From: a virus
Taxonomy: Duplodnaviria; Heunggongvirae; Uroviricota; Caudoviricetes
DNA: 21,382 nt
IMG/VR virus record: IMGVR_UViG_2874962485_000007
Strand: one strand, 5' to 3'
Within the stretch, counting starts at the first letter, position 1; every line of letters begins with the position of its first letter. Made by a program: the position numbers and the translations under genes. Below the pieces are notes generated by a model. The model ran no database searches. It saw only the letters and a list, made by a program, of their open reading frames with translations, and was not told the DNA's origin. Of this stretch, positions 7,814 through 12,086 are shown piece by piece.

Positions 7814-7818
7814 CTGAG
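7814..7818. repeat. IS2 target-site duplication CTGAG (left copy; right copy at 11857..11861)
   Basis: Identical 5-bp direct repeat immediately flanking both IS2 termini. Confidence 0.85.
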
Positions 7819-7909
7819 TAGACTGGCCCCCTGAATCTCCAGACAACCAGTATCACTTATTTAAGTGATAGTCTTAATACTAGTTTTTAGACTAGTCATT
7901 GGAGAACAG

Positions 7910-8275
7910 ATGATTGATGTCTTAGGGCCGGAGAAACGCAGACGGCGTACCACACAGGAAAAGATCGCAATTGTTCAGCAGAGCTTTGAACCGGGGATGA
8001 CGGTCTCCCTCGTTGCCCGGCAACATGGTGTAGCAGCCAGCCAGTTATTTCTCTGGCGTAAGCAATACCAGGAAGGAAGTCTTACTGCTGTGGCCGCCGG
8101 AGAACAGGTTGTTCCTGCCTCTGAACTTGCTGCCGCCATGAAGCAGATTAAAGAACTCCAGCGCCTGCTCGGCAAGAAAACGATGGAAAATGAACTCCTC
8201 AAAGAAGCCGTTGAATATGGACGGGCAAAAAAGTGGATAGCGCACGCGCCCTTATTGCCCGGGGATGGGGAGTAA
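7910..8275 (+). CDS. insC: IS2 InsC (OrfA)
   Basis: [56 protein letters not shown]...; A6G slippery site at 8227..8233. Confidence 0.9.
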
Positions 8276-9111
8276 GCTTAGTCAGCCGTTGTCTCCGGGT
8301 GTCGCGTGCGCAGTTGCACGTCATTCTCAGACGAACCGATGACTGGATGGATGGCCGCCGCAGTCGTCACACTGATGATACGGATGTGCTTCTCCGTATA
8401 CACCATGTTATCGGAGAGCTGCCCACGTATGGTTATCGTCGGGTATGGGCGCTGCTTCGCAGACAGGCAGAACTTGATGGTATGCCTGCGATCAATGCCA
8501 AACGTGTTTACCGGATCATGCGCCAGAATGCGCTGTTGCTTGAGCGAAAACCTGCTGTACCGCCATCGAAACGGGCACATACAGGCAGAGTAGCCGTGAA
8601 AGAAAGCAATCAGCGATGGTGCTCTGACGGGTTCGAGTTCTGCTGTGATAACGGAGAGAGACTGCGTGTCACGTTCGCGCTGGACTGCTGTGATCGTGAG
8701 GCACTGCACTGGGCGGTGACTACCGGCGGCTTCAACAGTGAAACAGTACAGGACGTCATGCTGGGAGCGGTGGAACGCCGCTTCGGCAACGATCTTCCGT
8801 CGTCTCCAGTGGAGTGGCTGACGGATAATGGTTCATGCTACCGGGCTAATGAAACACGCCAGTTCGCCCGGATGTTGGGACTTGAACCGAAGAACACGGC
8901 GGTGCGGAGTCCGGAGAGTAACGGAATAGCAGAGAGCTTCGTGAAAACGATAAAGCGTGACTACATCAGTATCATGCCCAAACCAGACGGGTTAACGGCA
9001 GCAAAGAACCTTGCAGAGGCGTTCGAGCATTATAACGAATGGCATCCGCATAGTGCGCTGGGTTATCGCTCGCCACGGGAATATCTGCGGCAGCGGGCTT
9101 GTAATGGGTAA
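8233..9111 (+). CDS. insD: IS2 InsD (OrfB transposase), C-terminus altered by IS66-family insertion
   Basis: DDE transposase core. The frame ends ...RQRACNG* at the IS66 junction, whereas the partial IS2 copy at 19133..19399 shows the native ending ...[16 protein letters not shown]. Confidence 0.85.
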
Positions 9112-9160
9112 CCGGCTCATTTAAACCGTCTGGTCTGTTTCCTCCGGCTCTACAAAAATA

Positions 9161-9838
9161 ATGTCCATCATTTTTAATGGACACTATCGTATGAAACACC
9201 GGACCTGGATCACTGAAGCTTTACGTCTTCACTTTGAAGAACATTTACCCCGGGTTGTGGCCGGGCGTCGCCTGGGTGTACCAAAATCAACAGTTTGTAG
9301 TATGTTTGTGCGCTTTCGGAGAGCTGGCCTTTCGTGGCCTTTGCCCTCAGGCATGTCGGAGCAGGAACTTGATGCCTGCCTTTACGGACAATTTTCCACG
9401 GTACCAGTCGTACGTCCTGAAAGCACCGTTATATCCGAAGCCCCCGTGGTAAAAAAACGTCCCCGGCGGCCCAACTTCCCTTATGAGTTTAAAATCGCCT
9501 TAGTGGAGCAGTCACTGCAGCCCGGAGCCTGTGTGGCGCAGATCGCCCGGGAAAACGGAATCAACGATAACCTGCTCTTCAACTGGCGCCATCAATACCG
9601 GAAAGGTGGCCTGCTGCCTTCCGGAAAAAATATGCCGGCACTGCTTCCCGTGACGTTAACGCCGGAGCCGGATAATAAAATCCCGGCTCCGGCACAGGAA
9701 CCAGAGCAGATAAATACACCGTCCGACAGTCTGTGTTGTGAGCTGGTTCTGCCGGCCGGAACTCTCAGGCTTAAAGGTAAACTGACGCCGGCGTTATTAC
9801 AGACACTTATCCGCGAAATAAAAGGGAGCAGCCACTGA
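9161..9838 (+). CDS. IS66-family OrfA (TnpA, HTH accessory protein)
   Basis: 225-aa ORF ending in an ATGA overlap with orfB; HTH-like segments. Exact start uncertain (alternative ATG at 9191). Confidence 0.7.
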   Translation: MSIIFNGHYRMKHRTWITEALRLHFEEHLPRVVAGRRLGVPKSTVCSMFVRFRRAGLSWPLPSGMSEQELDACLYGQFSTVPVVRPESTVISEAPVVKKRPRRPNFPYEFKIALVEQSLQPGACVAQIARENGINDNLLFNWRHQYRKGGLLPSGKNMPALLPVTLTPEPDNKIPAPAQEPEQINTPSDSLCCELVLPAGTLRLKGKLTPALLQTLIREIKGSSH

Positions 9839-10185
9839 TGATATCTCTCCCTGCAGGTTCGCGTATCTGGCTGGTTGCCGGTATCACCGATATGCGAAAT
9901 GGCTTTAACGGCCTGGCCTCAAAAGTTCAGAACGTCCTGAAGGATGACCCGTTCTCCGGACACCTGTTCATCTTCCGCGGACGCCGGGGTGACCAGATAA
10001 AAGTGTTGTGGGCTGACAGTGACGGACTGTGCCTCTTCACCAAACGCCTGGAGCGGGGCCGCTTCGTCTGGCCAGTCACCCGTGACGGCAAGGTGCACCT
10101 TACTCCGGCTCAGTTATCCATGCTTCTTGAAGGTATCAACTGGAAGCACCCGAAACGAACGGAACGCGCTGGAATCCGCATATAA
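9838..10185 (+). CDS. IS66-family OrfB (TnpB)
   Basis: 115-aa MISLPAGSRIWLVAGITDMRNGFNGLASKVQNVLKDDPFSGHLFIFRGRRGDQIKVLWAD..., the typical IS66 Orf2. Confidence 0.85.
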   Translation: MISLPAGSRIWLVAGITDMRNGFNGLASKVQNVLKDDPFSGHLFIFRGRRGDQIKVLWADSDGLCLFTKRLERGRFVWPVTRDGKVHLTPAQLSMLLEGINWKHPKRTERAGIRI

Positions 10186-10204
10186 CCCGTTGTAAAGTGA
10201 GGAT

Positions 10205-11776
10205 ATGGACACCTCACTTGCTCATGAGAATGCCCGCCTGCGGGCACTGTTGCAGACGCAACAGGACACCATCCGCCAGATGGCCGAATATAACCGCCTG
10301 CTCTCACTGCGGGTGGCGGCTTATGCTTCCGAAATCAACCGGCTGAAGGCGCTGGTTGCAAAACTGCAGCGCATGCAGTTCGGTAAAAGCTCAGAAAAAC
10401 TTCGCGCAAAAACCGAACGACAGATACAGGAAGCACAGGAGCGAATCAGCGCACTTCAGGAAGAAATGGCGGAAACGCTGGGTGAGCAATATGACCCGGT
10501 ACTGCCATCCGCCCTGCGCCAGTCTTCAGCCCGTAAACTGTTACCGGCCTCACTTCCCCGTGAAACCCGGGTCATCCGGCCGGAAGAGGAATGCTGTCCT
10601 GCCTGTGGTGGTGAACTCAGTTCTCTGGGATGTGATGTGTCAGAGCAACTGGAGCTTATCAGCAGCGCCTTTAAGGTTATCGAAACACAACGTCCGAAAC
10701 TGGCCTGTTGCCGGTGCGACCATATCGTGCAGGCACCAGTACCTTCAAAACCCATTGCACGCAGTTATGCCGGAGCGGGGCTTCTTGCCCATGTTGTCAC
10801 CGGGAAATATGCAGACCATCTGCCGTTATACCGCCAGTCAGAAATATACCGTCGTCAGGGCGTGGAGCTGAGCCGTGCCACACTGGGGCGCTGGACAGGT
10901 GCTGTTGCTGAACTGCTGGAGCCACTGTATGACGTCCTGCGCCAGTATGTGCTGATGCCCGGTAAAGTCCATGCCGATGATATCCCCGTCCCGGTCCAGG
11001 AGCCGGGCAGCGGTAAAACCCGGACAGCCCGGCTGTGGGTCTACGTCCGTGATGACCGTAACGCCGGTTCACAGATGCCTGCGGCGGTCTGGTTCGCGTA
11101 CAGCCCGGACCGGAAAGGCATCCATCCACAAAATCACCTGGCCGGTTACAGCGGAGTGCTTCAGGCCGATGCTTACGGTGGCTACCGGGCGTTATACGAA
11201 TCCGGCAGAATAACGGAAGCCGCGTGTATGGCCCATGCCCGGAGAAAAATCCACGATGTGCATGCAAGAGCGCCAACCGATATCACCACGGAAGCCCTGC
11301 AGCGTATCGGTGAACTGTATGCCATCGAGGCAGAAGTCCGGGGATGTTCAGCAGAACAGCGTCTGGCAGCAAGAAAAGCCAGAGCTGCGCCACTGATGCA
11401 GTCACTGTATGACTGGATACAGACTCAGATGAAAACACTGTCGCGTCACTCGGATACGGCAAAAGCGTTCGCATACCTGCTGAAACAGTGGGAGGCCCTG
11501 AACGTGTACTGCAGTAATGGCTGGGTGGAAATCGACAACAACATCGCAGAGAACGCCTTACGGGGAGTGGCCGTAGGCCGGAAAAACTGGCTGTTCGCGG
11601 GTTCCGACAGCGGTGGTGAACATGCGGCGGTGTTGTACTCGCTGATCGGCACATGCCGTCTGAACAATGTGGAGCCAGAAAAGTGGCTGCGTTACGTCAT
11701 TGAACATATCCAGGACTGGCCGGCAAACCGGGTACGCGATCTGTTGCCCTGGAAAGTTGATCTGAGCTCTCAGTAA
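10205..11776 (+). CDS. IS66-family OrfC (TnpC transposase)
   Basis: 523-aa ORF with N-terminal coiled-coil, CxxC...CxxC zinc-ribbon motif and DDE-like core (HADDIPV...LWVYVRDD...). Confidence 0.85.
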
Positions 11777-12086
11777 ATATCAATACGGTTCTGACGAGCC
11801 GCTTACTGTAATGGGTTAAGTGATAACAGATGTCTGGAAATATAGGGGCAAATCCACTGAGCCAGAGGATTACGAAGGGCTTCATAAATATATGCTCTCA
11901 CTAGGATTCAGGAGAACGATCCCCCATGGAGATGGTTCGTATAATCAACTCCCGGACGGAACTTATGTTTCCGAAAAGGGCGGTGATATTTATCAAATTC
12001 GCAGCCAGATATCTGACTATGCAGACCGACTATCCGGGTATCGCGCGTCTGTTTTTGTTTGCGAATTCAGTCAATGCGCATGGTAT

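Follow-up and report, generated by a model that had tools for sequence, protein, structure and literature searches.

Insertion sequences (IS) nested within other insertion sequences are known from decayed prophages, for instance from the CP4-6 prophage of Escherichia coli K-12, where IS30A lies inside IS911A (annotated as IS911A / IS30A / IS911A-1) and IS1B lies next to IS30B. True target selection is known as well: IS30 and IS911 insert next to end-like sequences, while IS1397 and ISKpn1 insert into repetitive extragenic palindromes (REP). IS2, a member of the IS3 family, is 1331 bp long, has characteristic ends, carries orfA and orfB with an A6G frameshift site, and duplicates 5 bp of its target. 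ISCro1 is an IS66-family element first named in Citrobacter rodentium ICC168, with the gene order tnpA-tnpB-tnpC and tips of the form GTAA... and ...TTAC. It was published as a 2699-bp element producing an 8-bp target duplication (PMC12115866), and it has expanded to 24 copies in C. rodentium (PMC3072379). The stretch of DNA described here (the window, 21,382 nucleotides of the Caudoviricetes record IMGVR_UViG_2874962485_000007) contains an ISCro1 inside an IS2. Like the K-12 case, it is an IS inside an IS within a decayed prophage. It differs in the element pair and in that relatives supplied the empty sites of both insertions, which documents the order and recency of the two events.

The nested structure is real, cleanly resolved, recent and ordinary, and consists of two known elements. 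Its parts are as follows.

7814..7818, no strand: CTGAG, left copy of the 5-bp target duplication of IS2 (direct reading; single CTGAG at the E. coli empty site).
7819..9107, plus strand: IS2 positions 1-1289, with the left inverted repeat, insC/orfA, and insD/orfB minus its last nine codons (99.4-99.9% identity to annotated IS2; A6G frameshift motif at ~8229).
7865..8275, plus strand: IS2 orfA (insC) open reading frame (the matching gene called in related contigs is Pfam HTH_Tnp_1).
8233..9111, plus strand: truncated IS2 orfB (insD), ending ...RQRACNG and then the stop (product matches rve domains; the stop TAA at 9109-9111 is the ISCro1 tip).
9100..9107, no strand: TGTAATGG, left copy of the 8-bp target duplication, IS2 positions 1282-1289 (single copy where IS2 is uninterrupted, at 11 other Shigella flexneri chromosomal loci).
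9108..11806, plus strand: ISCro1 (IS66 family), 2699 bp, intact (100% identity to annotated E. coli ISCro1 copies).
9161..9838, plus strand: ISCro1 tnpA, 225 amino acids (NCBIfam IS66_access_TnpA, E=9e-89).
9838..10185, plus strand: ISCro1 tnpB, 115 amino acids, IS66-type accessory protein (Prokaryotic Genome Annotation Pipeline, PGAP, annotation of identical copies; Pfam TnpB_IS66).
10205..11776, plus strand: ISCro1 tnpC, 523 amino acids, DDE transposase (Pfam DDE_Tnp_IS66 on the identical protein).
11807..11814, no strand: TGTAATGG, right copy of the 8-bp duplication (direct reading).
11815..11856, plus strand: IS2 positions 1290-1331, the right inverted repeat, containing the native insD stop codon (direct reading and comparison with uninterrupted IS2).
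11857..11861, no strand: CTGAG, right copy of the 5-bp duplication of IS2 (direct reading; E. coli empty site).

Including its insert, IS2 spans 7819-11856 (read directly from the sequence, with the coordinates checked by script), beginning with TAGACTGGCCCCC... at 7819 and finishing with ...GGGGCAAATCCA at 11856. Its terminal inverted repeats are present, with the ends TAGACTGG... and ...CAAATCCA. Subtraction of the insert and of one TGTAATGG leaves exactly 1331 bp, and the element reconstituted in this way is 99.4-99.9% identical to IS2 copies annotated by PGAP. CTGAG stands on both sides of the element, a coincidence with a chance of ~1/1024. The insert occupies 2699 bp (9108-11806), has the tips GTAACCGGCTC... 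and ...GAGCCGCTTAC, and is bordered by the 8-bp duplication TGTAATGG at 9100-9107 and 11807-11814 (chance ~1/65536). As a G follows TGTAATGG on both sides, the boundary carries a one-base ambiguity, and the GTAA tip typical of IS66-family ends sets it where the first-pass annotation had placed it. That annotation, which described an IS66-family element nested in IS2, is confirmed base for base in its boundaries, in both duplications and in both lengths; a reference IS2 that already held the 2.7-kb segment was looked for and not found.

The insert is identical over all 2699 bp to E. coli copies whose transposase is annotated at NCBI as 'IS66-like element ISCro1 family transposase'. All three of its open reading frames are intact, and its imperfect terminal inverted repeats begin with GTAA (tips GTAACCGGCTC / GTAAGCGGCTC). 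Nothing in the element itself distinguishes it from the named ISCro1; only the location inside an S. flexneri IS2 is particular. The helix-turn-helix region of its TnpA weakly matches the model 'IS2 repressor TnpA' (E=1.7e-8) as well as IS3-family transposase models (E=9.8e-8); IS66 TnpA and IS3-family OrfA therefore have a type of DNA-binding domain in common (Pfam HTH_Tnp_1).

Within IS2, orfA and orfB overlap at a -1 frameshift site (AAAAAAG at ~8229), and orfB carries an rve (DDE) domain (Pfam, on the identical product) and is nine codons short. This shortening, owing to the insert, is what separates the copy from IS2 as described. ISCro1 entered after IS2 position 1289; its placement at the native insD stop codon by the first-pass annotation does not stand. 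The native stop (TAG, IS2 positions 1318-1320) lies within the right inverted repeat, 27 nucleotides downstream of the entry point, and the last nine codons (LSDNRCLEI) are lost. The new stop, TAA, is formed by bases 2-4 of the ISCro1 tip. Both IS2 inverted repeats are intact, and 42 bp of the right end are preserved.

Searches for identical proteins assigned the window to S. flexneri chromosomes, and positions 3845-21382 are 100% identical over 17.5 kb to S. flexneri LR213455.1 (L085). At 11 further chromosomal loci of S. flexneri (L075-L084, L086), this IS2 occupies the identical site between the same CTGAG flanks, without ISCro1 and with a single TGTAATGG. One level further back, E. coli chromosomes join the flanks through a single CTGAG in an ungapped 518-nucleotide match of 99.8% identity. 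The empty sites are present in the S. flexneri relatives (relatives lacking them were searched for, and none was found), and the nested structure in one piece was found neither in the plasmid collection PLSDB nor in 5,426 complete E. coli genomes. As empty sites exist at both levels, IS2 is the older and common insertion, and ISCro1 came later, in one strain only among those compared. Structure, order of events and strain specificity are thereby demonstrated.

IS2 entered a small gene long ago, within a decayed lambdoid prophage that carries ipaH, duplicating CTGAG, and this copy is common to many S. flexneri strains. In the LR213455.1 lineage, an active ISCro1 later transposed into the resident IS2 between positions 1289 and 1290, in the same orientation, duplicating TGTAATGG. 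The entry spared the IS2 inverted repeats, cut nine transposase codons and created a new stop codon. Abundance and harmlessness of IS DNA in Shigella, instead of a specific target borne by IS2, probably account for the landing place. An insertion in place, IS2 first and ISCro1 second, without IS2-specific targeting, is very probably the correct reading; the absence of a targeting mechanism is the part of it that we infer.

The window contains a second contact between IS2 and an IS66-family element, located near its right end.

19122..19401, minus strand: IS2 right-end remnant, IS2 positions 1052-1331, 280 bp (sequence comparison).
19402..21382, minus strand: ISSfl3 (IS66 family; ISSfl4 in pCP301), cut by the window end (full element 2734 bp; without target duplication).

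The first-pass annotation had taken this piece for another IS2 copy interrupted by a different IS66-family member. It does adjoin such a member, the IS2 remnant abutting the GTAAGCG tip of ISSfl3 at 19402; it is, however, a 280-bp remnant with neither a target duplication nor the other half of IS2. The identity of ISSfl3 is clear from 99.8% agreement with ISSfl3-annotated copies on S. flexneri plasmids and from the NCBIfam model transpos_IS66 (E=1.5e-140). In full-length genomes, the 8-bp flanks of the element differ (CAACATCC vs TTCCTGAA), and beyond its far end unrelated DNA was found in place of the IS2 left half. Because the end 8-mers differ, a clean insertion of ISSfl3 into IS2 is not demonstrable; the differing flanks and the missing left half make the remnant the product either of an insertion followed by later rearrangement or of a one-ended event. 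Among four chromosomal ISSfl3 copies in one strain, a duplication is present in one (ATTCAAAT), and flanks are swapped among the copies. More broadly, the S. flexneri chromosomal ISSfl3 copies (L081, L097-L106) mostly lack target duplications and have exchanged flanks, as in L106, whose left flank is that of L097 and whose right flank is that of L099. A partial ISSfl3 repeat of 342 bp comes directly after one of the copies.

From the two IS2 contacts, the first-pass annotation had suggested that IS2 is a preferred target of IS66-family elements. The corresponding alternative to an untargeted insertion is a mechanistic attraction of IS66-family transposition to IS2 or, in a wider version, to DNA of the IS3 family or of other insertion sequences, so that both junctions of the window express a real preference; on the whole of the evidence, this is improbable. 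Possible routes of attraction would be the transposase-bound ends, or the HTH_Tnp_1-type domain shared by IS66 TnpA and IS3-family OrfA, for which the weak match of ISCro1 TnpA to the IS2 repressor model speaks.

Several observations favor such an attraction and thus weigh against the absence of targeting. The chromosome LR213455.1 carries at least eight ISCro1 copies with identical TnpC and 99.8-100% identical DNA, and this near-identity indicates that the copies are recent. The hosts of the eight copies shown are IS2 (in the window), IS911 (181-189), IS600 (341-349), an IS66-family relic, DNA beside another IS66 element, and non-IS DNA. IS2 is therefore one host among several. IS DNA receives four to five of the eight copies, far above its share of the genome, and is clearly over-represented as a host overall. 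As a separate matter, two of the copies in this genome (L089 and L090, at ~0.90 and 1.01 Mb) have reciprocal flanks, CTCCATAC on the left and CAGCAGAA on the right of the one, CAGCAGAA on the left and CTCCATAC on the right of the other, which points to a ~115-kb inversion by recombination between inverted ISCro1 copies. One original target of this pair is the IS66-family relic.

Attraction is also favored by the frequency with which ISCro1 and IS2 occur together. In control queries, IS1 or IS3 from K-12 was swapped for IS2; a record contains ISCro1 together with the larger part of the other IS, on one strand and within ~2.7 kb, and places are the total minus the ISCro1-only count.

IS2: 80 records, ~24,400 places.
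IS1: 43 records, ~75,500 places.
IS3: 14 records, ~19,600 places.

Per copy, co-localization with ISCro1 is ~5 times more common for IS2 than for the controls, in counts that are inflated by clonal lineages and by islands and plasmids shared between IS2 and ISCro1. Further support for attraction comes from the IS2 copy of the E. coli leuX island, located between an aldose 1-epimerase (WP_000107480.1) and a small hypothetical protein (WP_001446914.1). Four independent ISCro1 insertions are found in or beside it in different strains (L001, L009, L057, and L058), at IS2 positions 301, 801 and 1151 and 193 bp downstream. Every one of them is flanked by an 8-bp duplication of its own, and each site is empty in the other strains.

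In two contigs (ERR1301321 and SRR15373150; L067 and L070), two other IS66-family elements, with the tips GTAAGCGTCAACGG... and GTAAGCGTCGTCTG..., directly follow the same IS2 TGTAATGG and leave the same truncated InsD of 292 amino acids. Together with ISCro1, three different IS66-family tips are thus found after this one sequence. The two were obtained by exact look-up of the truncated InsD, a search able to detect that one IS2 position only, which limits what the coincidence says in favor of attraction. A one-piece match to one of these two junctions was not found in complete E. coli genomes. Six contigs ending exactly at ...TGTAATGGG are ambiguous contig breaks selected by the same kind of exact-protein look-up, and were not counted as events. 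ISSfl3, finally, has junctions with IS2 at three positions (15, 1052, and 1135), as well as one with IS600 at position 79.

The insertion sites argue in the opposite direction. In E. coli, ISCro1 lies in IS2 or IS2-like elements in the same orientation at positions 205 and 1151, and in the opposite orientation at positions 67, 115, 280, 301, 801, 951 and 1320. At least ten sites in IS2, from 67 to 1327 and in both orientations, are scattered over the whole element and share no motif. An apparent clustering at the IS2 right end (four of the first five sites fell in the last 280 bp) was ruled out by the opposite-orientation sites at 67, 115, 280, 301, 801 and 951, and an orientation bias by the numbers of records in which IS2 and ISCro1 share a strand (80) or lie on opposite strands (63). 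A target motif was likewise ruled out: the 21 tabulated ISCro1 target sites have a weak AT-rich center only, the duplications average 40% GC vs 53% for IS2, and 'GTAA' is present in 2 of 23 duplications, a frequency compatible with chance. Perfect 8-bp duplications flank 30 of the 32 ISCro1 copies examined, and a later IS2 insertion and the inversion account for the two exceptions. Candidates L050-L055 were rejected as nested cases, since the neighboring elements are 0.5-2.2 kb apart.

Nesting is, moreover, reciprocal, with IS2 found in ISCro1 at positions 86, 674, 762 and ~2495, and ISCro1 is nested in IS1 and IS3 as well. Same-orientation nested events number two for IS2, two to five for IS1 and one for IS3; these numbers are of one order, though IS1 presents more target DNA, and are similar per base. 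More than 95% of the E. coli ISCro1 copies are not near IS2. An unbiased sample from species-representative genomes consisted mostly of IS-only contigs; none of its ~14 usable right flanks of ISCro1 lay in IS2, a number too small to decide. No report of an IS2 preference of IS66-family elements was found in the searchable literature. The target-selecting elements IS30, IS911 and IS1397/ISKpn1 are alike in the repeated insertion of one kind of mobile element into a repeated sequence; they insert, however, at a fixed distance with respect to a sequence or structure that is defined, whereas ISCro1 occupies IS2 at ten or more positions, in both orientations and without a motif.

Two further arrangements of these elements were observed. 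In E. coli FMU073332 (L004), IS2 sits at the outer end of ISCro1, and its 5-bp duplication, CGGAA, includes the last ISCro1 base and splits the 8-bp duplication of ISCro1. Widespread on chromosomes and on plasmids of E. coli and Salmonella is a pair in which ISCro1 lies 14 bp beyond an IS2-like element with 95.8% identity to IS2 (L003, H37-H51, and H105-H109); the IS2-like element of this pair is without a target duplication there.

An IS2-specific preference of IS66-family elements is, therefore, not supported, with hosts in the source genome that include IS911, IS600 and IS66 relics, scattered sites, reciprocal nesting, and per-base counts similar for IS1 and IS3. The simplest explanation for the excess of IS DNA among the hosts is that insertions into DNA that is already dead are tolerated, together with co-residence in IS-rich islands. 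It is doubtful, though conceivable, that IS66-family elements (ISCro1, ISSfl3, and relatives) favor other insertion sequences, especially the IS3-family members IS2, IS600 and IS911, with insertions perhaps also concentrated locally at the inner border of the right inverted repeat of IS2; the leuX-island IS2, the two contigs with other tips, and the ISSfl3 junctions keep this general reading alive at a low probability.

It is far less likely still that the structure was formed elsewhere and arrived as an IS2::ISCro1 composite, either through exchange between IS2 copies (homologous recombination or gene conversion) or as a transposing 4038-bp unit: although both intact IS2 ends make such a unit movable in principle by IS2 transposase in trans, the window IS2 differs from that of the sister strains at two positions (697 and 774), and recombination between IS copies is active in the source genome (ISCro1 and ISSfl3 copies with swapped flanks), IS2 was present at this very site, between the same CTGAG copies, before ISCro1, as the 11 sister loci show, which excludes unit transposition into the site, two differences in 1331 bp match the ~0.2% by which the flanks themselves diverge, and no second copy of the junction was seen in PLSDB, the 5,426 E. 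coli genomes, or the eight source-genome copies shown.

The nested insertion lies on the S. flexneri chromosome in a decayed lambdoid prophage, which is recognizable from the neighboring genes (ipaH, a recE fragment, a Rha-family regulator, and a DicA-like repressor). Membership in the virulence plasmid pINV, hinted at by a first plasmid search, was ruled out by the absence of any match for the window flanks in PLSDB, by the prophage genes occurring with ipaH, and by the identity to the chromosome LR213455.1. Positions 1-1812 hold an ipaH-family E3 ubiquitin ligase gene that starts at or before the window edge (608 amino acids as called in related genomes) and shows that the region belongs to the ipaH prophage islands of the chromosome. 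Two inverted IS600 copies (2611-3874 and 4801-6064, 99.1% identical) surround a 926-bp piece with the recE (exonuclease VIII) fragment; strain M90T (L080) has a single IS600 there, without the intervening piece. At 17654-18903, IS911 adjoins a hok-like gene. Two S. flexneri loci (L083 and L086) keep ~2.6 kb of additional prophage DNA between them (Rem, DUF1367, an IS600, YbcO, and DUF1133), which indicates that the window lineage carries a deletion ending at IS911.

The nesting of two known insertion sequences is a routine event, here well documented. If it were true that IS66-family elements prefer IS DNA, this would help to explain the build-up of "IS graveyards" and would provide a handle on the poorly understood mechanism of IS66 transposition; the present data do not establish such a preference. 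The nested insertion itself constitutes a strain-specific marker for one S. flexneri lineage, and the presence of at least eight near-identical ISCro1 copies, together with the ISCro1-mediated inversion, shows that this element has recently been active in Shigella.

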